Shown: piece after piece, positions 4,363 to 57,124 of the stretch
Numbering within the stretch: the first letter of the stretch is position 1
Layout of the letters: the number at the start of each line of letters is the position of its first letter
Assembly: GCA_963836235.1 (NCBI GenBank)
Contig: CAWIIP010000001.1
Span: 384,001 to 448,000, forward strand
Direction of reading: 5' to 3'
Origin: an uncultured Pseudomonadota bacterium
GTDB taxonomy: Bacteria; Oederibacteriota; Muellerivitia; Muellerivitales; Muellerivitaceae
DNA length: 64,000 bases
The notes under the pieces: model-generated
The model's database searches: none
The model's input: only the letters and a program-made list of their open reading frames with translations
Told to the model about the DNA's origin: nothing
Position numbers and translations under genes: made by a program

Positions 4363-7409
<3,047 letters not shown>

Positions 7410-7413
<4 letters not shown>

Positions 7414-9779
7414 TGAGTGACGCTCCACTTCCATTTGCGGATTTCGGGCATGTCTTGGCCTTGTTTATCGATGTAAAGCTTGTGCTCGACGAGTTTGTCC
7501 TTGACCATCTGCTTGATGTAAGCCCCTCTCGTTCCCAGCTTTGGTAGGCGGTCCACAACGTCTTGTACTAGGTGGAACCTGTCCAATTTGTTCAACACCC
7601 TCATGTCAAAAGCCGTGGTGATTGCGCCCTCCTCCACATAGCCCCGGACGTGGATATTCCGGTTGGTCCTGCGGTAGGTCAACCGGTGGATCAGCCAGGG
7701 GTATCCATGGAAGGCGAAGACGACGGGTTTATCCTTGGTGAAAAGCGAATCGAAATTCGTATCATTCAGCCCATGTGGGTGCTCGGTTTGCGGCTGTAAT
7801 CTCATCAGATCGACCACATTGATCATCCGGATTTTCAATTCGGGCAAATGTTGGCGAAGGATGGAAACGGCGGCAAGGGTTTCCAAGGTAGGTGTGTCCC
7901 CACAGCAAGCTAGGACCACATCGGGCTCGGCACCTTGGTCGTTGCTAGCCCATTGCCATATGCCGATACCTTCCGTGCAGTGCTTTTCCGCGGCGTCCAT
8001 GTCCAGCCATTGGGGAAGAGCGTGTTTCCCCGCGACCACCACGTTCACATAGTGACGGCTCCGCAGGCAGTGGTCAAAAACCGAAAGGAGGCAGTTGGCG
8101 TCGGGCGGAAGGTAAACGCGAACGATATCGGCCTTCTTGTTCACCACATGGTCGAGGAAGCCGGGGTCCTGGTGGGTGAAACCATTGTGATCCTGTTGCC
8201 AGACGTGGGAGGCCAGAAGGTAGTTCAACGACGCGATCTTCCTCCGCCAGGGCAATTCAGCGGTGATCTTCAACCACTTGGCGTGCTGGTTGAACATCGA
8301 ATCGATAATATGTATGAATGCCTCGTAACAATTGAAAAGTCCGTGCCGCCCCGTGAGCAGATAACCCTCCAGCCAGCCCTCCGACTGGTGCTCACTCAGC
8401 ATCGAGTCCAGCACCCGCCCGGTGGGCGAGAGAAATTCATCGTTCTTTTCGGTTCGGGCATCCCACTGACGGTTGGTTTCCTCAAAGACCGCGCCCAGAA
8501 GGTTCGAGAGGGTTTCATCTGGACCAAAGATACGGAAATTGTTTTGATCCATATTTATCTTGGCCACATCCCGTAGAAACTTTCCAAGCACCATCGTATC
8601 CTGGCCGTTAACGGCTCCAGGTGACGGCACCTTCACGGCATAGACACGGAAATCCGGCATCCGCAGGTCTCGAAGCAGTAACCCCCCATTAGCGTGGGGA
8701 TTAGCGCCCATCCGCCGGTCGCCCTTGGGTGCCAACTCGGCCAATTCCGGCATGATACAGCCATTTTTGTCGAAAAGTTCTTCCGGTTTATAGCTCTTCA
8801 TCCAGCTTTCCAATTGATGGAGGTGATCGGGATGCTCCGAATCCACCAGGAGCGGAACCTGGTGTGCCCGGAACGTGCCCTCCACTTGGAGGCCGTCGAC
8901 GGTTTTTGGTCCCGTCCAACCCTTTGGCGACCTGAGGACGATCATCGGCCAGCGAGGCCGGGTGGTGTCATTTTTGTCCCGCGCGTATTTTTGGATTTGC
9001 CGTATTTCCTCGACGGCCTGTTCCAGGGTAGCCGCCATGAGTTGATGCATCTTTTCCGGGTCATCTCCCTCCACAAAATAAGGTTTCCATCCGCACCCCT
9101 CTAAGAATTTTTCCAATTCCTCAGGTTCGATTCGGGCCAGGACGGTGGGGTTGGATATCTTGTAGCCGTTGAGATGAAGAATCGGCAATACCGCACCATC
9201 GGAAACGGGATTAAGGAATTTGTTGGAATGCCAGGCCGTGGCCAAAGGCCCCGTTTCAGCCTCGCCGTCGCCGATAACACAAGCCACTATGAGGCCAGGA
9301 TTATCGAAGGCGGCCCCGAATGCATGGCTGAGGGAGTACCCCAACTCGCCCCCCTCATGGATCGACCCAGGTGTCGTGGGGGCGACATGGCTGGAAATCC
9401 CGCCAGGAAAGGAAAATTGCGTGAAAAGTTTTTTTAAGCCCTCTTCATTTCGGCTGATGTTGGAGTAAACCTCGCTATAGGTGCCTTCCAGGTAAGTATT
9501 GGCAACCAGGGCCGGCCCGCCGTGGCCGGGACCGGCGATATAAAACATATCCAAGTCATACTTTTTGATGATCCGGTTCAGGTGAACGTATATGAAGTTC
9601 TGGCCGGGGGTCGTGCCCCAATGCCCGACCACCAAAGGCTTAACGTGGGACAGCTTCAAGGGCTCCTTCAGCAACGGATTGTCATAAAGGTATATCTGGC
9701 CGACCGACAGATAGTTCGCGGCGCGCCAATAGGCATCCATTTTGCGGAGCAGTTCAGGTGAAAGTGTTTCGGTCCCCAT
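7410..9779 (-). CDS. xfp: Phosphoketolase (XFP family)
   Basis: [39 protein letters not shown]. Confidence 0.96.
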
Positions 9780-9795
9780 TTTAAATCCCCCTTTT

Positions 9796-10995
9796 TCAGC
9801 CGATGTCGAGAAGGCGGCAAACCATCTTGGCGATCATGAATTCCTCGTCCGTGCAAATGATGCGGACGCTAACCCGGCTTTTGTCTCGGGATATCACCCC
9901 CTCGTTCGCCGTGTTCCGTTTTTCTTCGAGTTCAATCCCCAGAAATTCCAGTCCATCGCAAATCCGGGCCCGGACCGTGGGCGCGTTTTCGCCGATACCG
10001 GCCGAGAATACCAGCGTGTCCAGGCCGCCTAACGCCGCCGCGAAAGCGCCGATCCATTTCTTGACCTGGTAGCAAAATAACGTTATGGCCTCCGCCGCCC
10101 GCTGGTCCATCTTTTCGCTTTTCAACAAATCGCCCATATCCGAACTGGTTTCTGAAACCCCAATGAGTCCGGATTTGAAATTAACCATTTCATTGAATCC
10201 TTTTGCGTCGAGTCCCTCTTCACGCGCCAGGTAACCAAACAATCCGGGATCAATATCCCCGGAACGTGTGCCCATCGGCACACCGGCTGCGGGTGTAAAA
10301 CTCATACTGGTGTCCAGGGACTTTCCTTGCCGGACCGCCGCCAGGCTCGCGCCATTGCCAAGGTGGGCGAGGATGATCTTGCCTTGTGCCGCCTTCACCC
10401 CGGCCAAGCGGGCCAACTCCTCCATGAGGTACGAATAGGATAACCCGTGAAATCCATACCGGAGCACCCCCTTTGCCTCGTACCGGCGCGGAATCGGCAA
10501 CATCCGAGCTACTCGCGGCAAATTTTTATGGAAAGCCGTGTCGAAACAGGCCACTTGGGGCAAGTCGGGAAACCGGCGATGAAAAGCATCAATCAACATG
10601 ATCTCTTCCGGCAAGTGTTCAGGATCGAAAGTCGTGAGTTGCCGTAATTCCTCGATCATTTCTTTTGTGATTATTTTCGGGTCGCTATAATTCGGTCCTC
10701 CATGAACCACCCGGTGTCCTACTGCCGCCAAGGCGTCACGACCGCCGCGTTCTCCTATCCAATCCATTAGTACGCCCACCGCCGATTTGTGATCGGGCGT
10801 CTTAACTGGTCGAGTAAAATTGTCCAAAGGGGCCGGTCCCTTGACCCGCAAGGTGGCATCCGGCAATCCAATCCGGTCAATCCTGCCCGCCAGAATCCGC
10901 CTTAAAGGGTCGCCAATCTCAAATAAGTCGAACTTGATACTTGATGAGCCGCCATTGATGGTCAAAATGCGGGGTTCAGACGGATTCATCGCCAA
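9796..10995 (-). CDS. ackA: Acetate kinase
   Basis: [37 protein letters not shown]. Confidence 0.95.
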
Positions 10996-19117: not shown

Positions 19118-19314
19118 GTCAAGGAAGGTTAAAAAGAGGTGTTTTATGAACTTTAAAATCCATGAAGGGTAACACTATGGTCTGCCTGCTATGGCGGTAT
19201 AGCCATAGGGAAATGAAATATAGTCGGATGGGAAATTTAATTGATTATCAAAATGAGAGCTAAGTTACACACCCGCATACAAGGGTTATCCACAAAGGGA
19301 AGGTCAAATTCGTT

Positions 19315-19342
19315 TGTCCACTGCGGGTCCCCATCGTGGACA
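19315..19342 (+). repeat. 28-bp palindromic site, copy 4
   Basis: TGTCCACTGCG-GGTCCC-CATCGTGGACA. Confidence 0.85.
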
Positions 19343-19451: not shown

Positions 19452-20779
19452 CAGGGTGTAAAAGTTACGGGCGCCTAAATCAAGCAGCCTGACTTTTGAC
19501 CTCCTTGCGACTGGTGTGGACTTTGATTCTGTTCCATCGTTCTTGTTGAGCCGTTGCCACTCCCCACAAAAGTTTCACCAAAGTTCTTTCGTTCGTCATT
19601 CCGCCTACCGGTTTGAACCTCCGTCTCAATTCTCGGTTAAACCGCTCGATCAAGTTTGTACTCCTGAGTAGCATCCAATCTTTGTGGTCCTGTTGAAAGA
19701 AGACAGTGTACTTCTCAAAGTCTTTTTCAGTCATTGCCACCGCCTTAGGGTAGGCTTTTCCCCATTTGGCTTTGAGTTCACCCAAAGCTATTAGCGCCCG
19801 GTTCTTGCCGTCGGCCCAATAAACTTTCGTGAAGTCTTGTAGAAATTCTTTTTGGTCCTTGGCCGCTACCCTCACGCGGACGTTTCTCATCTTGTGAATG
19901 ACACATAATTGGTGGGGAATCGACAGTTTTTCTTCCACCGCCGCCAGAATGCCTGCGTGGGCGTCCGATACCACCAGCTTCAAAACCTTTCGATCCAAGC
20001 CTCGTGAAAGCAGATCCTCCAACAAGGCACTCCAACTCTCTTTGCTCTCTGAGTCTCCCACCACAAAACCCAAGAAATGGCGGTGCATTGTTCCATCCAC
20101 CCCAATGGCCACCAAAAGGGCTTGGTTTTCATAGCTTCCCATGCATTTCAAGGAAACATACAAAGCGTCCAGGTACAGGTATTGAATTCCTTCCGCCAAG
20201 GGCCGTTTTTCCCACGCAACCACCATTGGCTCCAGGTCTTGTGTCCATTGGCTGACCTGATTGGCCGTATGTTTGGTCCCGAACACCCCATTTAATTCCT
20301 CGGCCACCGATCGGGTTGAGGCACCTTTGATCCAAAACCTTCTTCCCAAATGAGCCATCAAATTCCCGGTCCCTTCCCGCAAAGCCTCAAGGGTACGGGG
20401 AATAAATCCACCCTCCCTCAAGACGGGCTTGTTCAACTTCAAGCGCCCAAAAGGCCCCGGCAAAACCATTTTCCGAAACCCATTGCGGTAAACCCCTTCG
20501 GATGGACAAGCCGCGGAAGACCTGCGGCCCAAAAACTCGTCCCGTTCTTCCTTCAAACGGGTATTTAAAGCATCTTCCAGCAAACCATTAATCTCTTGTT
20601 CAACCCAAACCCGAAGATCCCCAGCGTCCAATACAGCCTGAACTTGGGCTTTCACCTTTTCCTTTACCAGCACCTTCAACGACTGTTGTATATTCTTCAT
20701 GGGCGTAACGACCTTTCACAAAAAGGGATATGGCGTCTTCAATCAACACCATGTTACGCCCGCTTCTGTTTACACCCTG
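19452..20779 (-). mobile_element. IS256-family insertion sequence (no target-site duplication seen)
   Basis: Terminal inverted repeats CAGGGTGTAAA..CGGGCG / CGCCCG..TTTACACCCTG enclosing the transposase. Confidence 0.85.
19480..20700 (-). CDS. IS256-family (Mutator-type DDE) transposase
   Basis: YRNG, YLYLDA, VVSDAH.G, QLCVIHKMRN, STNLIERFNRELRRR. Confidence 0.93.
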   Translation of the reverse strand: MKNIQQSLKVLVKEKVKAQVQAVLDAGDLRVWVEQEINGLLEDALNTRLKEERDEFLGRRSSAACPSEGVYRNGFRKMVLPGPFGRLKLNKPVLREGGFIPRTLEALREGTGNLMAHLGRRFWIKGASTRSVAEELNGVFGTKHTANQVSQWTQDLEPMVVAWEKRPLAEGIQYLYLDALYVSLKCMGSYENQALLVAIGVDGTMHRHFLGFVVGDSESKESWSALLEDLLSRGLDRKVLKLVVSDAHAGILAAVEEKLSIPHQLCVIHKMRNVRVRVAAKDQKEFLQDFTKVYWADGKNRALIALGELKAKWGKAYPKAVAMTEKDFEKYTVFFQQDHKDWMLLRSTNLIERFNRELRRRFKPVGGMTNERTLVKLLWGVATAQQERWNRIKVHTSRKEVKSQAA

Positions 20780-21291: not shown

Positions 21292-21328
21292 GTTGCACAC
21301 TATCCTTTTTGCGACAGGCATGTGCAGG
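21292..21328 (-). CRISPR. CRISPR-like 37-bp repeat, cas-distal copy
   Basis: Minus strand CCTGCACATGCCTGTCGCAAAAAGGATAGTGTGCAAC, identical to 47426-47462. Confidence 0.8.
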
Positions 21329-41296: not shown

Positions 41297-42334
41297 ATGG
41301 GAGATGAACCAAAACTTCAGAATGTTCCCATGAATAAAAAGACAATGCAGGCCATGGTGTTGGCGGCACAGGGACAACCCCTGAAACCCCTCTTTCTTCC
41401 CAAACCAATTCCAGGACGGGGCCAAGTACTTGTACGGGTCCTCGCTTGCGGCCTATGCCGCACCGACCTGCACGTGGTGGACGGCGACCTGAAGGAGCCC
41501 AAACTGCCCCTTGTTCCGGGCCATCAAGTGGTGGGCGTAGTGGAGAGCTTGGGCCCCAGCATAACGGCCGTTCAAATCGGTGAACGCATTGGTATCCCCT
41601 GGCTTGGCGGCAGTTGCGGCTCATGCGATTACTGCCGAAGCGGAAGGGAAAACCTTTGCGACCATGCTCGATACACCGGCTATCAATTGGACGGCGGCTT
41701 CGCCGAATACTGCCTGGCGGATGAGCGCTTTGTTTTCCCCATTCCCAAGTCCTACCCTGACCCGCAAGCCGCGCCCCTTTTATGCGCGGGCCTGATTGGC
41801 TACCGCTCTTTACGGATGGCGGGAAATGGAAAAAAACTTGGATTTTACGGTTTCGGCGCGTCGGCCCACCTTTTAATCCAAGTCGCGAAATACCAAGGGC
41901 GTGAAGTTTATGTCTTTACCCGCAAAGGAGATACCGAAAGCCAGGCCTTTGCCGAAAAACTGGGGGCCACGTGGGTGGGAACATCGGGTGAAACCCCGCC
42001 AAAACATTTGGATGCGGCCATCATCTTCGCACCCGTTGGGGAATTAGTGCCGATGGCCCTTAAAGCGGTTGCCAAGGGCGGGGTGGTTGTCTGCGCGGGC
42101 ATCCATATGAGCGATATCCCCTCTTTCCCCTATTCCATCCTTTGGGGCGAGCGGCAGGTGCGTTCAGTGGCAAATTTAACCCGCCAAGACGGAGAGGAAT
42201 TCCTGAAGTTGGCCCCCCAAATCCCCATCAAAACGCAGGTGAAAATCTATCCTCTTGATCAGGCTAATGAGGCTTTGGCCGACCTTCGCGCGGGCCGCCT
42301 TCAGGGGGCTGCAGTATTAAGAATCGGGTCTTAA
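41297..42334 (+). CDS. Zinc-dependent alcohol dehydrogenase family protein
   Basis: CRTDLH, PGHQ, CGSCDYC...ENLC, LLCAG. Confidence 0.93.
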   Translation: MGDEPKLQNVPMNKKTMQAMVLAAQGQPLKPLFLPKPIPGRGQVLVRVLACGLCRTDLHVVDGDLKEPKLPLVPGHQVVGVVESLGPSITAVQIGERIGIPWLGGSCGSCDYCRSGRENLCDHARYTGYQLDGGFAEYCLADERFVFPIPKSYPDPQAAPLLCAGLIGYRSLRMAGNGKKLGFYGFGASAHLLIQVAKYQGREVYVFTRKGDTESQAFAEKLGATWVGTSGETPPKHLDAAIIFAPVGELVPMALKAVAKGGVVVCAGIHMSDIPSFPYSILWGERQVRSVANLTRQDGEEFLKLAPQIPIKTQVKIYPLDQANEALADLRAGRLQGAAVLRIGS

Positions 42335-42425: not shown

Positions 42426-43238
42426 CTATTCCAGCATTCCCTCCAAGTAACGAATTGCTTTACGGGCGCGGCGGAGCAACCTCCATTCTTTCCGCTCCAG
42501 GATTTCAAAGCCACCCTTCTTCCCTTCTGCGGTTATCCCGAGTCGTTCGAAGGATTTTTCCACTCCTTGCCAATCCCTCAACTGTCCCAGGGCATACTGG
42601 ACCTCGTTGGTGGCCTTGAGAAGTTTCTTCCTCTTAGGAGGATGCAGGAAGTCAAACAGTTCCAGGTCGTAACGGAGGCGTTTGGCTTGGATGCGCAGAT
42701 GATGCAAGACTTTTCGTTTGGGGCCCCCCTGGTCATAGTTCGAAATGGATTTTTGAACCCGTTCCATCTCCTTACAAAAAGAAGCCTCAACCTTTTTTTG
42801 CAATTTACTCCTTTTCATCTTTCTCTCAATCTCTTGAAACACCATGGCAATGTCCGAAAAAAACAGGTCGAAAGCCTTATTAACCAGGATGGCTTGGAAG
42901 GCTCCCTCCTTCTTCCTCCTTCGGGCGGACCCGCTGGTTGCCTGGCGTTTTTTGGAAAATCCCTCCGACCGCAATATTTTCGAGGACACATGTGACTCCC
43001 TCAGGGGCCCTGTCAAACCTTGCAAGTATTTTATTTGTTCGATTTCATGTTCGAAACGCCGTTTTTCCAAAAGATGCTTTTCCAAGCGCAGTACCGCTTC
43101 GATGCGTCTTAAGGAAGTCCTGAAATCGTGGAGGGTGCGTGGGTCAATCCGTTTTATCAGCTTTCGACGGCACACTTTTCGAGCGGCGCTAGCATCAATA
43201 GCCTCTTCAAATGCCCGCTCGCGATGGTCTACCGGCAT
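42426..43238 (-). CDS. CHAD domain protein
   Basis: LHDFRTSLRR and LHHLRIQAKRLRY.LE, LG.LRD. Confidence 0.85.
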   Translation of the reverse strand: MPVDHRERAFEEAIDASAARKVCRRKLIKRIDPRTLHDFRTSLRRIEAVLRLEKHLLEKRRFEHEIEQIKYLQGLTGPLRESHVSSKILRSEGFSKKRQATSGSARRRKKEGAFQAILVNKAFDLFFSDIAMVFQEIERKMKRSKLQKKVEASFCKEMERVQKSISNYDQGGPKRKVLHHLRIQAKRLRYDLELFDFLHPPKRKKLLKATNEVQYALGQLRDWQGVEKSFERLGITAEGKKGGFEILERKEWRLLRRARKAIRYLEGMLE

Positions 43239-43753
43239 CAGGCCACCTCTTCGCGAAGATCGATTTTCCCTGTCATGGCTGCCGAAATTAACGTTTGGCG
43301 ATATTCTCTAAGTTTTTCAATTTGAGTTTTGATTTTTCCAGCGGGTTCATCAAGATGCTGATTTCCACCCCTTTCATTTTTGATGGCAAGCAAATCTATT
43401 CTCGTTGTTTTTTTATCCAAGAAAGAAACAATTTCTAATTGTTCTTTCGCCTCAGGAATATAAATTTCTAAATCTCCCAATTTATCGCCAGTTAAGTGTG
43501 CAATTGTCGCCCTATTACACAAAACTTCAAACCAACCAAACCAATCCATAGTTTCGAGTAAATATTTTAAAAACTTCAAAGAGTTCTTTTTTTTGCTTCG
43601 AATTCTGTGAAGAGCATTTTGAATTATGCATTTATTTGGAACATTTTTTAAAATGGAAGCTCGACCTACTTCTCCGCCCTCACAAACAAGCAAGTCCCCA
43701 TCTAAAACTTCAAATTTCTCTAGTTCGTTTTTATTTGTCCACATTTCAGGCAG

Positions 43754-45177
43754 GAAGTTGTCCCGCCGCCAGTTGAATTAGTGAAGTGACGGCCCCTGGT
43801 TTGCCTACCTTAGGCCACAGCCGTTTCTGCGTCAACGTCGTTCGCCGTGCACCTCCTCAAAGCCGCCTGCAAAATTGGAATTTCCCTGTATCCTCTGAGG
43901 CGTTTGAAAGCTCCTTCCGCACGCATCAGGCCCGCTGTCGCCCAACGCTGGCGCATGTCCCCACCCCTCCACCGCTTCACCCGCACCGTCACCTTACCCG
44001 CCACACTGAACGCCGACTCGATGGGGTTTGTCGTCACCAAGCTTTTCGCCAACAGGGCCGGTAGACCCAGCTTGGCCACCGTCAGGGTCTCTTCGAGGCC
44101 TTCTCTCAGGCTTGCGGCCGCGTCCTGGTTGATCCGGGTGAGCCAGGCGCCCAGAGTGTTGAGGCGCTTCTCGCCTTCACGCCAGTCCTTGCAGGCGTAA
44201 GCCTCCGCCATGCGGCTTCGGATTTCGTCGTGGTGCTTCTTTGCCACGTAGCCCAGCACGTTTCGGATCTTGTGCTGCTGGCAGCGCTGAATTTGGACAT
44301 TGGATCCACACAGCCGCTTCACCGCCGCCGCCAAAGCCTTGGACCCGTCCAGTACGAACAGCATGGGGGTTTCGAAGCTTAAGCCCCGATCTCTCAAGTC
44401 CGTCAACAGATCGGTGCAGACCTGGGCATTCTCCGTGGCCCCTTGGCGCAGACCCAAAATGACCTTCTCCCCGGCCCCTTTCCCGGCTTTCACCCCCAGG
44501 GCCACCACCAGCATCTCTCCCCCATAGGGCACCCCGTCGATGAACACTGCCACGAACTCTTGCCCCTCAAAACGTCTTTCTGCAAGGGTTTTCATCTGTT
44601 TGGCCGAGGCCTTCACGAAGCCACGGCTCACACTGGAGCGCTTCATCCCAAACCCTTTAGCCAAGGGCTCTAGGCACCCTTCGTACTCTCGGCAGGACAC
44701 CCCCCGCACCATGCGCCGAAGGGCGTTTTCAGGCATGGCTTCGGGGTTTTGGAGTTTCTGATAGGTCTGAAGAAGGACTTCACCGCCCTCTTTCATCCGC
44801 GCCCGGGGCTTCTGGAGGGGCACCTTGCGTCCGGCCAGTACAACCGTCCCACCCTGGCTTCCCCAACGGCTGGCCGATCGCCCCAGCTGGCGCTGGTGCA
44901 TCGGCCCGCACAGGTCTTGGATTTCCGCTTGTAGCAACTCCTGGGCCGCCAACAACCCCAACTGACAAGCCAGGCTGTTGAGCCCATCCTGAATCATCGC
45001 CAATCGCTCTTCCCGGCTTAACGGCAGTTGTCCAAAATTCTTGTCGCCTTTCGAGGTGTTACGGTGTAACTTTCTCATGGTGGTTTCCTCTCTTTTTTAA
45101 AAAAATTGGTCACCCAGACTTTACAGTCTGGGCAGAGGAGCCACCACCTTCTTTTCAACTACGAACGGGACAATTTC
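43754..45177 (-). mobile_element. IS256-family element with 8-bp target-site duplication
   Basis: IRs GAAGTTGTCCCG..AGTTGAA / TTCAACT..CGGGACAATTTC; TSD TCAGGCAG at 43746-43753 and 45178-45185. Confidence 0.92.
43810..45078 (-). CDS. IS256-family transposase
   Basis: VFIDG, VLDGSKAL, QRCQQHKIRN, TTNPIES. Confidence 0.92.
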   Translation of the reverse strand: MRKLHRNTSKGDKNFGQLPLSREERLAMIQDGLNSLACQLGLLAAQELLQAEIQDLCGPMHQRQLGRSASRWGSQGGTVVLAGRKVPLQKPRARMKEGGEVLLQTYQKLQNPEAMPENALRRMVRGVSCREYEGCLEPLAKGFGMKRSSVSRGFVKASAKQMKTLAERRFEGQEFVAVFIDGVPYGGEMLVVALGVKAGKGAGEKVILGLRQGATENAQVCTDLLTDLRDRGLSFETPMLFVLDGSKALAAAVKRLCGSNVQIQRCQQHKIRNVLGYVAKKHHDEIRSRMAEAYACKDWREGEKRLNTLGAWLTRINQDAAASLREGLEETLTVAKLGLPALLAKSLVTTNPIESAFSVAGKVTVRVKRWRGGDMRQRWATAGLMRAEGAFKRLRGYREIPILQAALRRCTANDVDAETAVA

Positions 45178-45411
45178 TCAGGCAGATCAGTCACGTCTAC
45201 CTTGTACCACAGAACATGAACGGCTTTTAAATAAGGTACGAGAATATCGCTTTCGTCCTTTCGTTCAGATTGGAGCATTTTTCCAAGTTGTATCGAATAT
45301 TCAAACTTGATCTTTGTTTTTTGCCAATGACTTGGAACCCGATCCACCCATTCAACGGACGAACTTTTATATTCGGGATAGGGTTTGTATCTGTCTTGAC
45401 TTGGATGGGTG

Positions 45412-46122
45412 TTATTTTCCAATTATTTTACTTTCAAATATTTCCAATTTAGTTAACCACTCATTAAAATGCAGGCATTCGCCCCTGATTCTGGCCAACC
45501 CGATTCTTTGAGTGACCAACGGTCCGTAAATCTTTTTTTGATATCCAGGGAAAATATCCGAAAGTCTTTTAGATGGAGCCGTTTGTGGGTTGTCGTTAAT
45601 GTCTTCGGGAGTCTCAAATTTTCCCTTTATCTCAGCCAGTTTTTTTTCTTTCCCCGTGTCCAACAGCGCCCCAGCCGTTTCACCGGGGTCCACAAAAAGC
45701 ATGGCTTCGAACTCATGGACCTCAAAATTAGGGATAAACCTTCCATCACCGATATCCTCCTTGAACTTTTGTTCCAGGAACTTTACCCGTTCGATACCGC
45801 GCTTTGAGGTTGAATGATAGCCTGGAAAATCGGAAGGGAGGCCGTAATAATCAATCATGGTGGTGACACAAACCACATCCGTGTCCTTCAAAAGATTCAT
45901 CAGGTCGTACCTGACTTTTCCATATGAAACAATGCCGCCCTTAAAATCCGGCCCCTTTTTCACCCGCTTCGTGGTGGCCAGTTTTGCGATTAGGAAAATC
46001 CCTTTCAGAGCAAAATAGGGGCCTAGTACGTCCCGGACGAAGGTTTCTTCCGTTTGCCCTTCAGCCAAGACCAGGATTCGGCTCAATGGGTTGGCCTTCC
46101 GCCCAGAATGTTTTTCTCCCAT
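45412..46122 (-). CDS. DUF4276-like (TOPRIM/RloB-related) protein
   Basis: EGQTEE.FV, DYYGLP, HEFEA, PE.IND...APSKR; overlaps the upstream AAA gene. Confidence 0.75.
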   Translation of the reverse strand: MGEKHSGRKANPLSRILVLAEGQTEETFVRDVLGPYFALKGIFLIAKLATTKRVKKGPDFKGGIVSYGKVRYDLMNLLKDTDVVCVTTMIDYYGLPSDFPGYHSTSKRGIERVKFLEQKFKEDIGDGRFIPNFEVHEFEAMLFVDPGETAGALLDTGKEKKLAEIKGKFETPEDINDNPQTAPSKRLSDIFPGYQKKIYGPLVTQRIGLARIRGECLHFNEWLTKLEIFESKIIGK

Positions 46123-47171
46123 AGATCGCCCAATCCGTATTCCTCAAGCCAATCATCCATCTTGGCTTTCTCCAACTTGGAAAAGACCGATTGTCCTTCC
46201 TGCCGATCAACAACAACAATATCGGCTGGCTCAAACTGGTTGACAAGTCCAACGGACTGGGTAGATGCGATGATTTGTGTTTTAGTGGAAGTGCTTTTAA
46301 GAAGATCAGCGAGCAAAGCAACGGCGTAGGGATGAAGGCCAAGTTCGGGCTCATCTAGCAAAATGACGGATGGTAGTTCCGGTTGCAACAATAGTGTGGC
46401 CAGACAGATGAACCTTAAGGTACCGTCCGATAGGGTATGGGCGTTGAAATAGTCGTCCGAACCCTTTTGGTGCCATTCCAAAAGAATTTTTCCCTTATTC
46501 AACTTGGAGGGGCGCAAAAAGAAATCATCAAAGAATGGTGCCGCCAATCGCACGGTTTCAACGATATTTTTATAATTGCCTTTATGGCGTTCCTGTAGGA
46601 AGTAAAGGAAAGCCGCGAGGTTTGACGCATCGGGCCTGAAAACCTCGTTATCATCTATTTCTCCCGTTTGTTTCATCTTGGAGCTTTCGCTTGTGTCATG
46701 AAAGTGGTAGACACGCCAGCTTTCCATGTTTTTTAAAACATGATTGACGGTCGCTTTTTGCTTAGCCAAAGTATGTAGTTTTGTTTCCTTGTGCCCTTCA
46801 CCGAGGCCTTCCTCATATGGGCGTTTATACCCGGCACCTTGAAAATAGGCGGATTCTTCCAGGAAAATCAGCGAATCATCCGTTGAGGGGCCCAATTTGC
46901 AGGAATATCCATTCGGATTGAAATCACAATGTATAAAAATTTCATTGGTTATTTTGGAGCCGAAGTACAAGAACGTGTTCGCGCCGCCTGATTTACCGAC
47001 AAAAACCTGGAGGTTTTTTAGGACAATTTGGTTTAAAAGCTTAAAGAGAGAAATAAAATTTGACTTCCCTGCCCCGTTGGGACCAATGAGAACATTTAAG
47101 GGTCTTAGTTTCAAATCCATATCTTTTATGGATTTGAAACCTTGAACTTTAACGCTTTTAAGTGCGTGCAT
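46083..47171 (-). CDS. AAA_21/ABC-type ATPase
   Basis: GFKS, IGPNGAGKSN, LSDGT, LLDEPE.GLHP. Confidence 0.88.
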   Translation of the reverse strand: MHALKSVKVQGFKSIKDMDLKLRPLNVLIGPNGAGKSNFISLFKLLNQIVLKNLQVFVGKSGGANTFLYFGSKITNEIFIHCDFNPNGYSCKLGPSTDDSLIFLEESAYFQGAGYKRPYEEGLGEGHKETKLHTLAKQKATVNHVLKNMESWRVYHFHDTSESSKMKQTGEIDDNEVFRPDASNLAAFLYFLQERHKGNYKNIVETVRLAAPFFDDFFLRPSKLNKGKILLEWHQKGSDDYFNAHTLSDGTLRFICLATLLLQPELPSVILLDEPELGLHPYAVALLADLLKSTSTKTQIIASTQSVGLVNQFEPADIVVVDRQEGQSVFSKLEKAKMDDWLEEYGLGDLWEKNILGGRPTH

Positions 47172-47247
47172 GATAATCTCCGGGATTCGATGCGTTTATT
47201 ATAACCCAGCTCTTTGGGTGCTTTAAACAAATCGGCTTTTGAAATTT

Positions 47248-47424
47248 TTATAATTCCTTTAATTCCTCAGCGATCTCGGCTTCCAACTGTTTAATCTCCG
47301 CCTCAATGACATCCAAGGGTCTTATGGTCTGATACTTGTAAAAATGCCGAGTGAAGGGAATTTCATAACCTATCTTGGTCTTACCATCGTCAATCCAGGC
47401 ATCCGGCACGTGTGGCAGAACTTC
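47248..47424 (-). pseudogene. hsdM: 3' fragment (last ~58 aa) of a type I R-M methyltransferase
   Basis: Manual translation EVLPHVPDAWIDDGKTKIGYEIPFTRHFYKYQ..RPLDVIEAEIKQLEAEI; begins 1 bp after the 37-bp repeat, no start codon. Confidence 0.85.
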
Positions 47425-47425
47425 A

Positions 47426-47462
47426 GTTGCACACTATCCTTTTTGCGACAGGCATGTGCAGG
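47426..47462 (-). CRISPR. CRISPR-like 37-bp repeat, cas-proximal copy
   Basis: 22 bp downstream of the cas2 stop; TGCACA...TGTGCA terminal dyad and TGCAAC 3' end; identical to 21292-21328. Confidence 0.82.
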
Positions 47463-47484
47463 AGCCTGCAATTATTGGTGTTTT

Positions 47485-47820
47485 TCACCGTTCCGCCGAA
47501 TTCGGCGTGATTTGGATAAGTTCAAACGCAGTTTCAATGTCGACATCATCTTTCTTAGAACTAAGCGTACCACCGAAAACCGAATCTTCAAAGCACGACC
47601 GACAGAGCGTACTGATAAAAAACTTTTCGGTCTTCTTTGCGAAAGCCCCCTTGAATTTATTCTCGAGTTTTTCCCGTTCTTTTGAATACAATTTTCCGAT
47701 ATACATATTCCGGAAAACCGGCTTGAGACCATAATTCTTGCACCACAGAACCGCCTTGTCCCGATGCCGCCAGTCGCGCGTTTCCCACGATACTAGGGTG
47801 ATGGCATTGAAATTGTTCAT
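47485..47820 (-). CDS. cas2: Divergent Cas2-like protein
   Basis: 111 aa, ATGA overlap with cas1; Cas2-like pattern (R.K....KNYGL.....Y.G.L...E ... LC..C) but SWET in place of YDI. Confidence 0.7.
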   Translation of the reverse strand: MNNFNAITLVSWETRDWRHRDKAVLWCKNYGLKPVFRNMYIGKLYSKEREKLENKFKGAFAKKTEKFFISTLCRSCFEDSVFGGTLSSKKDDVDIETAFELIQITPNSAER

Positions 47821-48827
47821 GATATCGAAAAAAGTTTTTCCGCACGAAACGGGTTGTACTTGTCCTCCTTTTCGACAAAGTGACGTGCCAACGCCCTAAT
47901 CTGGTTATCTATGATCTGCTTAAGAGTATATTGTTTCCCCCGCCATGCCGTCGTTTCATTCAACCGCCTCATGATCGCCCCCACCACGACGCTTTTTCCC
48001 TCAGGCGATAACAGATATTGCCCAACCGCGGTTTTTTCAAAATATTTCCGTTGGCTCAGTTTCTTTTCTATGAAAAGCGGGAAAAGCACCGAGTCGACGA
48101 TTGGTACGCGGAATTCTTCGACAAGATCGAGAACGAGGGCAGGCTTACCATAGCGTTCACTGTGGTAGAGGCCGAGATATGGATCAAGACCGACGTAAAG
48201 GCATGCCCGTTCGACTTCATTGTAAAGGATGCCGTAACCATAATTCAGTACGCTGTTAAACTGGTCCCTGCCTTGTGGTTTTCGGCCCGGGAATCTATAG
48301 AATTTTTTTAACCCGCTGAAATATTTGTCCGCGATGTATCCTTCCGTACCAAGGAGTTGCTCCTTGCCTTTCTCCGAACACGGGACATTGTCCAAGACAT
48401 CAAAAAGGGTCTGCGCTTGTAAGAGCTCGGTCCCCACATCCTTTTTATATCGGTACGCGAGATATCGGAGTAGATCGAGCTGATTAGCGCATTTGCCCCG
48501 CACTAATTCTTTTGCGATTTTGAACGATCGCTCAAGCGAAGTTGACGCTTCCAGTTGCGCTTTACGAAGACTCGCCAACCCTTTTGGTTCGCTTGAAAAT
48601 AGTCTTCCGATGGGCTTGCCAAAAGAACCGAGATAGACGATATCAACATCGTGCTCAATCGCGAGCTGAACTGCGTGAGTCGTGAGCGAGGCCGGCCGCA
48701 GTATGACTATTTTCTCCAGTCTGTGGATTGGGTATTCTTTTTTCTCTTTAACTTTCGGAAAAGAAAGGACGATGCGCTCACCATTTACGCCGATCTTGGT
48801 ACCGTAAGTATCAATAAGCAAGTCCAT
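47817..48827 (-). CDS. cas1: CRISPR-associated integrase Cas1
   Basis: LLGTEG..A..YF, D.FNS.LNYGYGIL, GLDPY.G.YH, LVLDLVEEFR; catalytic E/H/D-E positions present. Confidence 0.93.
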   Translation of the reverse strand: MDLLIDTYGTKIGVNGERIVLSFPKVKEKKEYPIHRLEKIVILRPASLTTHAVQLAIEHDVDIVYLGSFGKPIGRLFSSEPKGLASLRKAQLEASTSLERSFKIAKELVRGKCANQLDLLRYLAYRYKKDVGTELLQAQTLFDVLDNVPCSEKGKEQLLGTEGYIADKYFSGLKKFYRFPGRKPQGRDQFNSVLNYGYGILYNEVERACLYVGLDPYLGLYHSERYGKPALVLDLVEEFRVPIVDSVLFPLFIEKKLSQRKYFEKTAVGQYLLSPEGKSVVVGAIMRRLNETTAWRGKQYTLKQIIDNQIRALARHFVEKEDKYNPFRAEKLFSIS

Positions 48828-48901
48828 GTGATCTGCCCCCCAAATTTCGTAAACCATCTTTGTACGGAAGATGCCTGGCTACCATTATCCATCATTTTCG
48901 T

Positions 48902-48929
48902 TGTTCACGAAGGGTCCCCGCCGTGGACA
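48902..48929 (+). repeat. 28-bp palindromic site, copy 5
   Basis: TGTTCACGAAG-GGTCCC-CGCCGTGGACA. Confidence 0.85.
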
Positions 48930-51632: not shown

Positions 51633-51857
51633 GGATTAAACTCGCTTTCCAAAACGTCCTCAACACTGACCAATTCTACTCCCCCTTCTGGCCGCACCGA
51701 AAACTCATTACCTTTCGAAATTGGGGCGACGTCAAGTCTACGCAATCAGGAAAGTAACGGCCGTTTCCCGATCTGCTTCTAAATATGAATATGGGTGTGG
51801 CTAAGGCCGTCGGGGACGTTGTGGGCGAAGCGGCGAGGAAGGCTTTGGGTCTTTAGA

Positions 51858-51885
51858 TGTCCACGACGGGTCCCCATCGTGGACA
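51858..51885 (+). repeat. 28-bp palindromic site, copy 6
   Basis: TGTCCACGACG-GGTCCC-CATCGTGGACA. Confidence 0.88.
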
Positions 51886-52569: not shown

Positions 52570-52586
52570 ACCTTTCTAATATCGCC

Positions 52587-52614
52587 TATTCACGACGGGG
52601 CCCCGTCACGAATA
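52587..52614 (+). repeat. 28-bp palindromic site, copy 7
   Basis: TATTCACGACG-GGGCCC-CGTCACGAATA (compensated outer arms). Confidence 0.75.
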
Positions 52615-52635
52615 GGTTGGTTTGATAAAAAATAT

Positions 52636-52663
52636 TGTTCCTTCAGGATCCCCGTCGTGGACA
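52636..52663 (+). repeat. 28-bp palindromic site, copy 8
   Basis: TGTTCCTTCAG-GATCCC-CGTCGTGGACA. Confidence 0.75.
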
Positions 52664-53389: not shown

Positions 53390-53464
53390 GGCGTCTCCTT
53401 ATCGTATAACAATATGATACTCAATCGTGACACGCTTTCAAGTCCATAAATTAGTGGCTGGGAT

Positions 53465-53492
53465 TGTCCACGAAGGGTCCCCGTCGTAGACA
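53465..53492 (+). repeat. 28-bp palindromic site, copy 9 (border with core genes)
   Basis: TGTCCACGAAG-GGTCCC-CGTCGTAGACA. Confidence 0.85.
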
Positions 53493-53581: not shown

Positions 53582-56500
53582 TTAAACCTTAGAAAGCTGC
53601 TTTGGCGGGTTGGCGGGATTGAAAGCTGGCAGCAAAGCTGTTCCTGACAGAATCTTCTCGGCTTGTTCCATGGCCTGTTCCATCTTTGGGTAACGAACCA
53701 GACGGTATCCCCTCACTTCTTCGGGCAAAGAAAGAACAGCCACCCATCGCTCGTACATCTCCGGGCTGGTATATTCAAAACGGTCTACCAGGGCCTCGTA
53801 CCAGGCCCTAAAGCCTTTTTCTCGCTTGTGCCAGGTGGGCATCAGGCGGCGGAGGAATTTCATGTGTTTCATGGTGTTCAGCATCCAATCGCGGCTGTTG
53901 AAATCGAATTCGATATTCATGCCCATTATGTCGAAATGGGGTCGGTTGAAGTGCTTGTAGATGATCTTGTCCCCGTGGGCTAAATCCACCTTGTAACGCT
54001 TGGCGTCCTTCTCGTATTTCTCGGGGCTGGTCAAGAGATGGGCCACATAGACCTCGTCCTTGATTTCCATAACCTTATGCAAATACTTCACCACCGCTTT
54101 GGTGGCTGAGAATTCGGCGGCTTTAGAATCCTTCTTCAAGGTGGCCAGCACCCGGTTCAAGTATTTTTGGGCGTAGGCGGTATTCTCGAACTCGATGAGG
54201 TCGTAGAGGCGGTTGGCGAATTGGACCCGGGTGTCCTCGTCCCCTTCCCAGGCTTTAAGGAACTCTTCGGTCATCCTGATGTAAACATCGGCGCGGCTTC
54301 CACCTAATAGCCCGGCCTTCTTTGCCATGATTTCCTGGAAACTCAAGCGCACTTCGGCGTTGTACTTTTCGGGATGGACGGCCACATCCCGGCCCAAATG
54401 GAAGGCGTCAATATTGTGCTTGGCGGCGCTGGGGTTGAAGTTGTCCTTAATGGAATCGATCATCTCGTGAAGGGTGACGGGCAAAAGGCCCCTTTGGAAG
54501 GCCACGCCCAAAAGGAGGACGTTCACGAACACCTTGTTGCCCAGGTAATGCTCGGCAATGGCGCTCATATCGGCGCCGAAATAATCCTTGGTGTATTTCT
54601 TGAAAAGCTCGGCCAGTTCGACAGGGCTGAAATCTTCCTTCCCCATCAGGCTCAGGATGGTATGGGTTTTGTGGGTGTTCACGACCGATTGGGTATATTG
54701 CTTGGAGCCCACCCGGAAATTTAGGCGGGGGTCCAGGCCCCGGGCCGCTTCCAGGATATCCAAACCCAAGAGCAGGTTTGTTTTACCTTGGGGTTGAAGG
54801 GGTGAGACCACTTTTTTCTTTTTGGAAAAGGTAATTTGGGAATTAACGCCGCCATTGCGGATGGCGATGCCCTTTTTATCGCAAAATGTGATGTGGTAGC
54901 CATGTTTTTCGGCGGCCCGGACCAGGACGGCGGTGGAACTGCCGATACCCATGCCCCCAACGCCTGATATATAAGCCCGCCAGTCTTCCTCAAATTCGGT
55001 GGGCTTGGGCATGGGAATGAGGCCGGGGTCCGGCAAGGGCAGATTTTCCTGCTTGTGGGCGCGGACGATGGTGAGTTCCTCGAAGGCTGGGCAAGCCTTG
55101 ATGCGGGTGCAGGCCATGTCGGAAACGCAATAGGACAAGTCAGTAGACATCTTGGGGCCGTAAAGGGTGTCCTCGATGGCCAAGCCGGGACAGCCGGTCA
55201 AGCGGGTGCATTCCAGGCAATATTCGCAGGTATGGTCGTTCACGTTGACGCGCTTTTGAACGGGGAAATAGCCGTTCTTGGCCTTGAACTGGCTGACTTC
55301 CCGGCGCTTGCGGCGGTGGTAGGTGATGCCGCATTCCTTGTCGGCGATAACGAATTTCACGCCCGGTTCCAAAAGCATGTCTTCCAACAGGAAGCGGTAG
55401 TCGTCCCGTTTCTCCGGGTTGACCCTGGCGATGGTGAGGTCGTTGCCTTTCGTCAAGCCCTTCAAAACCTTCTCGATATCCTGGCCGAAAGTGGGGTTGC
55501 CCATCAAATCCGACTCCATGCCGGGATGGGGCTGGTGGCCGGTCATAGCGGTGGTCTTGTTGTCCAAAATGACGTAAAGCACGTCCTGGTTGTTCTTGAT
55601 GGAATCTGAAACTTCGGAAAGCCCGGAATGAAAGAAAGTGGAATCACCAATGAAGCAGACCGACTTGTTCGTCGAGAAGGGTGAAAGCCCAGCGCCCGTG
55701 CCGCCGCCCAGGCCCATGCCGATATAGTTGTGCATCAAAGGCCCGTTAGGAGGCATGAAGAGTAGGACGTAACAGCCGGCGTCGCCGTGGAAGAGAATGT
55801 CCAGGGGACCCATCTTGTGATGTTTCTTCATGTAAGCGGGGTCTTTAAAGTCCGCCACCAATTGAAGGAAGACCGAAGAGGAATCCCGATGGGGGCAACC
55901 GGGGCAGAAGGACGGCGTGCGTTTGGGGATATTGATTTCCAGGTCGTCCAGGCTATGAATAAATTGGATTTCCTTGTTCACCTTGGGAGTCGAGAGCTCG
56001 AAATGCTTCAAGAGGGGCGCCAAGGTGGTCATGACCACCGCCGGACTAAGACCCTTGCCTTCTGAAAAGCCTTCCAGGCTGTTAGGGAAGGATTTTCCCC
56101 AGACCGTCGGCATTTCCTTGAGCTTGCCGGACTGGTAGAGGTCCATGGCGATGTTGCGGACTTGGCTTTCGATAAAGCGGCGTTTTTCCTCCACCACCAC
56201 CAGGGTCGTGGAGTATTTCAGGATTTCCTCGACCGCCTGGGGGTCGACCGGAAAGGTAAGGCCCAACTTCAAGATCGGGAATTTTCCCGACATGCCAAAT
56301 TCGGAGAGGGCCTGTTCCAAGTAGGTATAGGACGCCCCCGCGGTAATAAAGGCGAAACTCTTTTCCTTGCCCGGAAGAACCTTATTAATGCCTTTCGCCC
56401 GGGCGGATTCCAGGAGCCGGGGAAACTTGACTTCCAGCGCCTCTTTTTCCAGGGGGATGGTGTGGGGCGGCAGGACGATGGAATGGGTGACGTCGAATTT

Positions 56501-57124
56501 GGAACTATCGATGGTGACCCTATTTAAAGTCGTGGCGCCCTTTGGTGGCTGGTTGGGATGGACTTCCACGCTTCCCCCGCCCTCGGCCGTATAGGTGATG
56601 AGCAGATAGGCGATGAAGAGGTCGGCTTCTTCCGAAAGCTCAAAGGCGACCTTGACCCAATCCTTGATTTCCTGGAAGGTGGCCGGTTCTAAAACGGGGA
56701 TGAATAAATGGTCGGAGAGGCGGCGGGAATCGACCGGAACCTGGGTAGTGTCGCTCCAGGGGTCGTCGCCAATAACGATCACCCCGGCGCCTTGATGGTC
56801 TTTCTTGGCCAGGCTTCCTGCCACCAGGGCGTCGGCGGCCACGTGGAAACCCACCGATTTCATCACCGTAATGGCCCGCAGACCCGCCATTTGGGCCCCG
56901 TTGAGCCTGGCGGCCGAGAGGGCTTCGTTGTTGGCGATTTGGGCGAGAATGCCGTGTTCTTTGAGGTAGGGCGTGGCGTTGGCGGCGGCCTCAAAAACAT
57001 CCGCCACGGGGGAACCGGGATAACCGGTTAAAAGGTTCATCCCCGCTTCCAGCCCGCCTTTGAGAATCAACTCGTTGCCGGTATAGGTTTCTGTGCCCGT
57101 ATCTTTGACAAATCTTGGGTCCAT
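53582..57124 (-). CDS. Indolepyruvate:ferredoxin oxidoreductase, fused alpha/beta
   Basis: GYPGSP, FCPGCPH, GDSTFFHSG, DNKTTAMTG.QP, GVGGMG, KDEVYVA. Confidence 0.85.
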   Translation of the reverse strand: MDPRFVKDTGTETYTGNELILKGGLEAGMNLLTGYPGSPVADVFEAAANATPYLKEHGILAQIANNEALSAARLNGAQMAGLRAITVMKSVGFHVAADALVAGSLAKKDHQGAGVIVIGDDPWSDTTQVPVDSRRLSDHLFIPVLEPATFQEIKDWVKVAFELSEEADLFIAYLLITYTAEGGGSVEVHPNQPPKGATTLNRVTIDSSKFDVTHSIVLPPHTIPLEKEALEVKFPRLLESARAKGINKVLPGKEKSFAFITAGASYTYLEQALSEFGMSGKFPILKLGLTFPVDPQAVEEILKYSTTLVVVEEKRRFIESQVRNIAMDLYQSGKLKEMPTVWGKSFPNSLEGFSEGKGLSPAVVMTTLAPLLKHFELSTPKVNKEIQFIHSLDDLEINIPKRTPSFCPGCPHRDSSSVFLQLVADFKDPAYMKKHHKMGPLDILFHGDAGCYVLLFMPPNGPLMHNYIGMGLGGGTGAGLSPFSTNKSVCFIGDSTFFHSGLSEVSDSIKNNQDVLYVILDNKTTAMTGHQPHPGMESDLMGNPTFGQDIEKVLKGLTKGNDLTIARVNPEKRDDYRFLLEDMLLEPGVKFVIADKECGITYHRRKRREVSQFKAKNGYFPVQKRVNVNDHTCEYCLECTRLTGCPGLAIEDTLYGPKMSTDLSYCVSDMACTRIKACPAFEELTIVRAHKQENLPLPDPGLIPMPKPTEFEEDWRAYISGVGGMGIGSSTAVLVRAAEKHGYHITFCDKKGIAIRNGGVNSQITFSKKKKVVSPLQPQGKTNLLLGLDILEAARGLDPRLNFRVGSKQYTQSVVNTHKTHTILSLMGKEDFSPVELAELFKKYTKDYFGADMSAIAEHYLGNKVFVNVLLLGVAFQRGLLPVTLHEMIDSIKDNFNPSAAKHNIDAFHLGRDVAVHPEKYNAEVRLSFQEIMAKKAGLLGGSRADVYIRMTEEFLKAWEGDEDTRVQFANRLYDLIEFENTAYAQKYLNRVLATLKKDSKAAEFSATKAVVKYLHKVMEIKDEVYVAHLLTSPEKYEKDAKRYKVDLAHGDKIIYKHFNRPHFDIMGMNIEFDFNSRDWMLNTMKHMKFLRRLMPTWHKREKGFRAWYEALVDRFEYTSPEMYERWVAVLSLPEEVRGYRLVRYPKMEQAMEQAEKILSGTALLPAFNPANPPKQLSKV

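Follow-up and report, generated by a model that had tools for sequence, protein, structure and literature searches.

The described systems closest to the locus analysed here are the adaptation modules of CRISPR systems, casposons and integrons. In CRISPR adaptation, the Cas1–Cas2 complex acts as a ruler that sets the length of the DNA it integrates. Casposons rely on a Cas1-family integrase; their inserts are of kilobase size, have the duplicated target on either side and can follow one another in tandem at a single site. Integrons gather accessory genes on a platform beside the gene of a tyrosine recombinase. Here, we have analysed a stretch of 64,000 nucleotides (nt) from an uncultured Pseudomonadota bacterium (Oederibacteriota in GTDB; assembly GCA_963836235.1, contig CAWIIP010000001.1, positions 384,001 to 448,000 of the forward strand), hereafter called the window, which contains a cas1 gene, a cas2-like gene and, a few nucleotides further on, a 37-nt direct repeat, R, whose copies in this genome are spaced from 68 bp to 26 kb. 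We lean, with modest confidence, towards the view that, at the leader-proximal repeat, the Cas1–Cas2 pair inserts DNA without constraint on its length and makes a second copy of this repeat, so that an array of captured genes and gene fragments is formed.

The features concerned are the following; positions are those of the window unless the genome of the window (G000) and a contig are named.

48901-48929: P, a 29-nt palindrome of the perfect type
48858-48929, minus strand: untranslated stretch upstream of cas1, ending in P, the outer border of the module
47817-48857, minus strand: cas1, 346 amino acids (aa), intact, with Pfam Cas_Cas1 and TIGR00287 matches
47485-47820, minus strand: cas2-like gene, 111 aa, overlapping cas1 by 4 nt, with SWET at residues 11-14
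47463-47484, minus strand: leader, 22 nt from the stop codon of the cas2-like gene to R, ending ...TTGCAGGCT in cas orientation
47426-47462, minus strand: leader-proximal copy of R, 37 nt, in cas orientation CCTGCACATGCCTGTCGCAAAAAGGATAGTGTGCAAC
21329-47425, minus strand: spacer-1 segment, the 26.1 kb between the first and second R, with genes cut at both ends
21292-21328, minus strand: second exact copy of R, 26.1 kb from the first
1-21291, minus strand: the part within the window of the second segment, which spans the 24.7 kb between the second and third R
G000:C1:380527-380563: third copy of R, 3.4 kb before the start of the window

The arrangement of the window recurs in its relatives. We fetched 136 related loci, 56 from species genomes and 80 from metagenomes, and in the Cas1 clade delimited below an R-like 37-mer stands at a nearly constant distance from cas1: among the genome loci, 30 of 36 have its start 341-377 nt after cas1, and among the metagenome contigs 23 of 35 have it at 344-382 nt, at least five of the 12 misses having less than 400 nt left past cas1. 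There are thus 53 related loci, mostly from Patescibacteria, with such a 37-mer at +341-382 nt. The repeats follow the consensus CCTGCA-N8-GTCGCA(A/C)AAAGGA-NN-TTGTGCAAC, in 46 distinct variants, and their ends are symmetric, since columns 3-8 pair with columns 30-35 in 90.6% of the cells, mostly through conservation, and both borders read nYTGCA from the outside. An inner hairpin of R was considered and dropped, as just 50.7% of the cells are paired and the register is inconsistent. A search for degenerate terminal repeats at 6-11 mismatches returned none, and its control returned none either.

Where a locus holds several repeats, the array is uniform and polar. The 19 multi-copy loci have 66 repeat copies, 64 of them exact and none inverted, and just two copies lie upstream of cas1 when equal flank lengths are searched on each side. 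Repeats are identical inside an array and differ between lineages, an observation that fits local duplication rather than sites carried by cassettes. The position at which homology is lost points to the same end of the array: in at least 10 pairs of orthologous or duplicated loci, homology stops 0-6 nt from the far border of the first repeat, with synteny on the upstream side of up to 11 kb. This is what leader-proximal insertion predicts, and it would equally fit any recombination at that border; the orthologous Patescibacteria loci (65-84% identity) are too divergent for a clean reconstruction of single insertions.

The leader is short and shares its end. Exactly 22 nt separate the cas2-like gene from R in the window, as the earlier note on this DNA had observed, and the leader measures ~2-67 nt across related loci. 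Directly 5' of the first repeat stands GCT in 37 of 46 distinct leader/repeat pairs, extended to GGCT in 28. The motif is restricted to the first repeat; the spacer ends that precede later repeats carry neither a motif nor inverted repeats. The earlier note had suggested that a dyad straddling the leader-repeat junction, TGCAGG-AG-CCTGCA (47457-47470, also scored as a 5-pair stem), could mark the integration site. This suggestion is not supported by the comparison, in which the full 6/6 dyad is found in just 2 of the 46 pairs and GCT is conserved instead. The same note had the two genes bounded by 28-bp sites: cas1 and cas2 are indeed the sole genes between the bounding sites (the other listed open reading frames, ORFs, overlap these two), but the sites are the 37-nt R and the 29-nt P, which are mutually unrelated. 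Promoter and terminator scans gave nothing above shuffles.

The DNA between the repeats is long and variable. The 47 spacers of the multi-copy loci measure 140-8291 bp (median 1429) and none is shorter than 100 bp, far from the short regular spacers of ~25-75 bp by which a CRISPR array is recognised and strikingly in line with the relaxed length control that the earlier note had suspected. Their ORFs lie on both strands (9651 aa versus 8227 aa). The genes are mostly full-length, ordinary accessory ones and not recognisably of phage origin: isochorismatase, short-chain dehydrogenase (SDR), ATP-grasp, CDP-alcohol phosphatidyltransferase, polyprenyl synthase and methyltransferases are found, besides CoiA, a SET domain protein and a short protein with a phage-integrase domain. 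Other spacers begin or end within genes, which are cut exactly at R. In the window, these are hsdM and polX; elsewhere, one spacer holds an NDK fragment (profile positions 57-134 of 135), another a TPR fragment whose frame stays open through 224 of 224 codons, another ends after the prodomain of a pro-kumamolisin, which is present as the prodomain alone, another opens inside an RHS-repeat gene, and a spacer of locus L035 covers Cas1 profile positions 106-280 of 283 followed by cas2. The GC content of the spacers is mostly below that of the host flank, for example in all eight spacers of locus L048 and all four of L053.

Two genomes have RHS/YD-repeat fragments that start directly at R (G000:C2:916954-917826, corresponding to 658-1530 of L004, and L023 past R at 7537), and in the former the reading frame continues from an ATG inside R. 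A genome of another genus, G012, contains an orphan array with four copies of R (L020, G012:C6:72000-90000, at 6387-10699), whose spacers of 1589, 1271 and 1305 bp each hold one whole ORF of 323-370 aa with a signal-peptide-like start, in repeat orientation; the proteins are not significantly similar. Just upstream of this array, at 4933-5871 of L020, lies a candidate ORF in which a transposase-like motif of the HUH/Y1 type (IS200-associated or associated with repetitive extragenic palindromes, REP) was recognised by eye.

The genome of the window, which is 99.4% complete, has nine exact copies of R and one with two mismatches (10 matches; the reversed control pattern gave none), and no further copies at up to eight mismatches. 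The contig of the window has three, at distances of 24.7 and 26.1 kb; contig C2 has another three, separated by spacers of 68 and 1327 bp, and C4 three more, with spacers of 971 and 920 bp. The remaining copy is solitary. The short spacers have no second copy in the genome. A 24-mer of R has two matches in the window against 0.00 expected from 100 shuffles. All copies have unrelated flanks and sharp borders, and Rfam has no family that matches R or the module. Three other identities for R were rejected. It is not an attachment (att) site in a tRNA, as the window has no tRNA gene; it is not a shared gene start (MPVAKRIVCN), as the reading frame closes shortly past R in most copies; and it is not a small mobile insertion, as its flanks are never contiguous halves of one gene (in L035, no cas1 N-terminus precedes the truncated cas1) and all copies have the same orientation.

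The loci with R are also united by their Cas1. In a quick maximum-likelihood tree of 84 rows, hand-picked and not systematically from the 136 loci and leaving out partial matches, near-duplicates and many outgroup contigs, all 38 R-bearing rows (those with an R-like 37-mer after cas1, in one copy or several) fall within one set of 42, with an SH-like approximate likelihood ratio test (SH-aLRT) value of 98. This clade holds none of the 24 canonical-array rows, and the window Cas1 nests among Patescibacteria sequences in the tree, whose root serves for drawing only. The database holds more than 1000 relatives of this Cas1, of which the nearest share 57-82% identity with it; where a source is named, it is mostly Patescibacteria. 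The nearest homologs, at 50-100% identity, all belong to two-gene loci, without the complete CRISPR-Cas loci and normal arrays that a decayed remnant would lead one to expect among them.

The Cas1 protein itself is intact, in agreement with the earlier note. It matches Pfam Cas_Cas1 with E 3.2e-68 and 230.4 bits (cut-off 22.3) and NCBIfam TIGR00287 with 250.9 bits (cut-off 71.7); among the subtype-specific NCBIfam models, I-G, I-D and I-C score best, each staying far under its own cut-off. Its closest solved structure is 4n06, a Cas1 (E 9.8e-35). E172, H232, D244 and E247 are invariant in an alignment of 20 relatives, and we take them, by the Cas1 motifs and without superposition, to be the catalytic Glu, His and acidic residues. 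The consensus of the homologs suggests that the true start may be Met11, at 48827. The genome has one Cas1 and one Cas2-like gene.

The 111-aa protein is a divergent but real relative of Cas2. It scores below the Pfam Cas2 cut-off (E 0.021, 15.5 bits against 23.8), and 20 of 26 members of its family match the same model at E<=0.1, the best with 6.8e-6. When the family profile is compared with the PDB, Cas2 chains come first (best E 0.0044). The AlphaFold (AF2) model shows a beta-alpha-beta-beta-alpha-beta core, with a mean predicted local distance difference test (pLDDT) value of 77.5 and values >90 for residues ~11-70, and the top five Foldseek matches of this model in the PDB are all Cas2 (E 2e-5 to 6e-4). 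SWET stands, as had been noted, at residues 11-14, where we presume the usual Cas2 motif YD(I/V) with the catalytic Asp. The usual Asp position at the end of strand 1 is not conserved, being E, Q, R, D, I or F across the 26 members, so that the nuclease site is probably gone, to judge from the alignment. C27, G31, G42, E48, C73 and C76 are invariant among the 26 orthologues from related loci. The Cys trio C27/C73/C76 (motif LCxSC) is thus present in 26 of 26 proteins, which hints at a metal site or a disulfide; to our knowledge, ordinary Cas2 proteins have no such invariant trio. Predictions of a complex of two Cas1 and two Cas2-like chains scored 0.18 and 0.05, against a mark of 0.32, which counts neither for nor against such a complex.

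As the earlier note had described, the module appears to be one for adaptation only. No effector gene was found in the locus; searches of the genome yielded no RAMP protein and nothing above the cut-off for Cas3 or Cas9 (Cas10 and Cas12 were not searched). The genome has no canonical array, and no CRISPR array lies within 16 kb around the module; six candidates from a k-mer search of the genome are coding tandem repeats inside long open frames. The scan for canonical arrays found them in 10 of 20 outgroup loci (Cas1 at <=34% identity), whereas in 36 clade loci its sole match was an unrelated tandem repeat of three copies with an 83-nt period, 6.7 kb upstream of cas1 in L030. There is no conserved gene family within 6 kb upstream of cas1, the largest being present in 3 of 34 loci. 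Nine large upstream ORFs encode housekeeping proteins, namely DnaE, glutamate synthase, RecJ (twice), a PEP-utilising enzyme, FtsH, PolX, an LCAT-like protein and an fn3 protein, with no Cas effector and no PolB among them (PolB was not searched as a family). Thirty proteins or fragments from spacers and R borders were scanned as well, and the sole Cas match was the truncated Cas1 of L035.

The fixed geometry, the polarity, the identity of repeats within arrays, the symmetric borders, the leader motif confined to the first repeat and the arbitrary ends and varying orientation of the inserts are the reasons why we favour CRISPR-type integration with duplication of the repeat. According to this model, a derived adaptation module without effector, consisting of Cas1 and a divergent Cas2, would recognise the leader end ...GGCT and the adjacent 37-bp repeat. 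Double-stranded DNA would be joined by the usual two transesterifications at both borders of the repeat, and gap repair would duplicate the repeat. No ruler would be applied to the incoming DNA, unlike in canonical Cas1–Cas2, and the inserts may run from ~0.14 kb up to several kb, or perhaps to tens of kb, with arbitrary ends, in either orientation and often as whole genes. With repeated rounds, captured DNA would then accumulate downstream of cas2 in a polar array. That Cas1–Cas2 is responsible for the integration, including its catalytic step, that the divergence of Cas2 lies behind the missing ruler and that the host benefits are what we infer from these observations.

The module has a second border, at P. 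Copies in other genomes match the block 47426-48929 (1504 bp) at 98-99% identity, and the similarity ends exactly at P and at R. In G012, whose Cas1 is 100% identical, the DNA similarity to the genome of the window is precisely this block (98% over 1504 bp); G012 has 11 copies of R, which are 1.3-3.5 kb apart in the examined arrays L020 and L021. One metagenome-assembled genome (MAG; contigs L026, L028, L031 and L035) has the module in three full copies and one 5'-truncated copy, at 99.7-100% identity and with differing flanks. Its truncated copy, with Cas1 from residue ~104, lies between two R copies of a six-repeat array. Metagenome contigs of three studies cover 47425-48929 only and have unrelated loose ends past both borders, and in one metagenome run the depth is 79 at R and 6 over the genes. 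Contigs of four runs were mapped, and parts of the stretch that they leave uncovered are uninformative; sampled words of the module are present in runs of 13 studies, which come from lake, soil, peat and sediment. In one contig of X1, 48374-48751 is missing, the shorter side having 26 letters; we could not interpret this.

P belongs to a family of 28-29-nt palindromes of the TGTCCACGACGGGTCCCCGTCGTGGACA type with 61 copies in the genome at up to five mismatches; those in the window are at 19314-19342, 48901-48929, 51857-51885, 52586-52614, 52635-52663 and 53464-53492. The copies cluster as arrays with a spacing of 0.5-3 kb, for instance 16 copies at G000:C2:1192093-1205568, and P is also abundant in G001, a genome of the same genus. 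It may be a REP-like element, a cassette boundary or something else.

Several points weigh against integration by Cas1–Cas2 with duplication of the repeat. We know of no Cas1–Cas2 that integrates kilobase-sized DNA. No integration event was seen, and the mapped contigs of the four runs have no polymorphic joint at R. Loci with a single R, such as L049 and L034, have non-homologous DNA past R and then shared synteny, with no second or degenerate R, and simple duplication of the repeat leaves such differing downstream DNA unexplained. The orphan R arrays on C2 and C4 lack the leader motif. All three spacers of the orphan array L020 share an element of 60-100 nt upstream of their ORFs, and some units may be duplications or related cassettes. 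The 26.1- and 24.7-kb segments of the window have a native-like GC content (0.52-0.53 versus 0.506 in the genome) and contain Mutator-family transposases; they may owe their size to later insertions or rearrangement. Finally, the precise border at P and the three full copies of the module in one MAG require a further mobility mechanism.

Some of these points speak for another explanation, in which R serves other machinery (a tyrosine or HUH recombinase, for instance, or REP-associated mobility) as a recombination or attachment site. The segments would then be cassettes that site-specific recombination shuffles, and Cas1–Cas2 would be a passenger of a mobile module delimited by P and R, or just one of its cassettes. 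The exact borders of the module in several unrelated contexts, its multiplication within one MAG, the breaks of metagenome contigs at both borders, the clustering of P, the existence of orphan arrays without leader and the common element in one of them, where each spacer adds one whole ORF, all count in its favour. We nevertheless regard this explanation as unlikely, because Patescibacteria loci lack P and yet have R at a fixed distance from cas2, varying with the Cas1 lineage, and because no other conserved gene lies near the module. Furthermore, repeats that are alike within arrays and different between genomes are unlike attC-type sites, and the supposed cassettes are inconsistently oriented and include many gene fragments.

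Two further explanations keep the locus within CRISPR biology. Since Cas1, Cas2, the leader and the logic of the repeats are those of CRISPR adaptation, the array could be an immune memory, whose long spacers, integrated by Cas1–Cas2, would be transcribed and cut into guides, or would work as long antisense RNA, serving effectors or nucleases whose genes lie elsewhere, the capture of genes being a by-product. The symmetric conserved ends of the repeat could also form an RNA stem, and an RNA library holds one contig with R and two with cas1, which is no proof of transcription. This explanation appears improbable to us, and somewhat more so than the involvement of other machinery, given that none of the effector families searched for scored above its cut-off in a nearly complete genome, that the related loci yielded no effector gene, that R has no Rfam match and its inner hairpin is unsupported, that the spacers hold mostly ordinary metabolic genes, and that none of 15 pattern matches in viral contigs is a relative. 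It is very improbable, in our opinion, that the locus is an ordinary CRISPR-Cas locus in decay, which lost its effectors and whose array was broken by insertions or rearrangements, leaving copies of R far apart by accident. The very large segments of the window, with their native-like GC content and transposases, and the truncated cas1 and cas2 copies of a relative would suit such a history. The same architecture is, however, repeated in 53 loci of a monophyletic Cas1 clade at 50-100% identity and many invariant residues; nearly all repeats of the multi-copy loci are exact, no degenerate copies occur and not one of the 47 spacers is under 100 bp; and canonical arrays were found in half of the outgroup loci scanned, against a single unrelated tandem repeat in the clade loci.

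In the window, the leader-proximal segment opens with the 3' end of hsdM (47251-47427, minus strand), whose last ~59 codons share 84% identity with the C-terminus of plasmid methyltransferases whose genes precede hsdS and hsdR; a full hsdM was not found elsewhere in the genome. What is left of a type I restriction-modification operon spans 43238-47427, with the following parts besides hsdM.

46083-47171: AAA_21 ATPase, within the remnant
45412-46122: DUF4276 protein, inserted after the AAA_21 ATPase
45159-45422: ORF of 87 aa without Pfam match, taken as the start of hsdS
43810-45078: Mutator-family transposase, between the 87-aa ORF and the hsdS piece
43238-43744: hsdS piece, part of the remnant

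At the far end of the 26.1-kb segment, the domains of polX stop after the thumb, at residue 344, exactly at the border of R, so that no PHP domain follows. At 19480-20700, 0.6 kb from the second R, there is another Mutator-family (IS256-like) transposase, which a copy on G000:C2 near the orphan R array of that contig matches with 100% identity over 1361 bp. Synteny with G001 (80% complete) is shared only at 53582-57000 (84%) and 41372-42318 (74%), and the state before insertion is not recoverable. The window from ~38 to 53.5 kb is a variable island, since it is largely absent from G001 save for one gene, at 41372-42318.

A wider view, in which our belief falls slightly short of our doubt, is that a widespread lineage of Cas1–Cas2, found mainly in Patescibacteria and transferred to other phyla, may have lost both its effector and its ruler and act as a site-specific, sequence-independent integrase of kilobase-sized DNA that builds repeat-delimited arrays of captured genes. 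It would be a CRISPR-derived counterpart of integrons and a living analogue of the step from casposons to CRISPR adaptation. No description of Cas1–Cas2 with kilobase spacers was found in full-text searches of the literature, including passages of 10.1101/2024.03.08.584096 and PMC12669027; this coverage does not extend to subscription journals and supplements, and a supplementary Cas1 tree or locus list could mention the clade. If Cas1–Cas2 of this clade does insert DNA of whatever length at a 37-bp site and duplicate this site, our understanding of what CRISPR adaptation enzymes are able to do will change, and Patescibacteria, with their small genomes, would own a dedicated locus for the acquisition of genes. 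The proposed transition from casposons to CRISPR would become open to experiments with a natural enzyme, and the system would be a candidate tool for placing large DNA at a defined site independently of homology. Should the arrays be built by another recombinase instead, their tight and conserved linkage to Cas1–Cas2 would still be unexplained and worth studying.

In summary, the locus shares features with each of the three systems mentioned at the beginning. Like the CRISPR adaptation modules of type I/III-like systems, it has a Cas1 over curated cut-offs with a partner of the Cas2 fold, and a short leader followed by a direct repeat, with identical repeats in a polar array downstream of the cas genes. 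It differs from them in that its spacers (140-8291 bp, and up to 26 kb in the genome of the window) contain genes, as compared with spacers of ~30-40 bp; in that the Asp position of its Cas2 is unconserved and three Cys are invariant; and in that it has no effector, Cas4 or Cas6 and a leader of only ~2-67 nt. With casposons it has in common inserts of kilobase size that are tied to a Cas1-family integrase and have a duplicated target at their flanks. Unlike in casposons, the inserts have no terminal inverted repeats or end motif, no conserved polymerase or cargo gene was found near the module (with the limit on PolB given above), the Cas1 groups with CRISPR Cas1s, a Cas2 is present, and the integrase genes lie outside the inserts. 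As in integrons, a fixed platform beside an integrase gene gathers kilobase-sized units of accessory genes in a variable region; here, however, the integrase would be Cas1 instead of a tyrosine recombinase, with no IntI or other gene conserved beside the module, the boundary sites are identical 37-mers that appear to be made in place rather than cassette-borne attC sites, and the units stand in either orientation and are often gene fragments. By analogy, the proposed capture locus may be said to work like a combination of the three, with inserts of casposon-like size, a target site and a repeat duplication like those of CRISPR, and an outcome like that of integrons.

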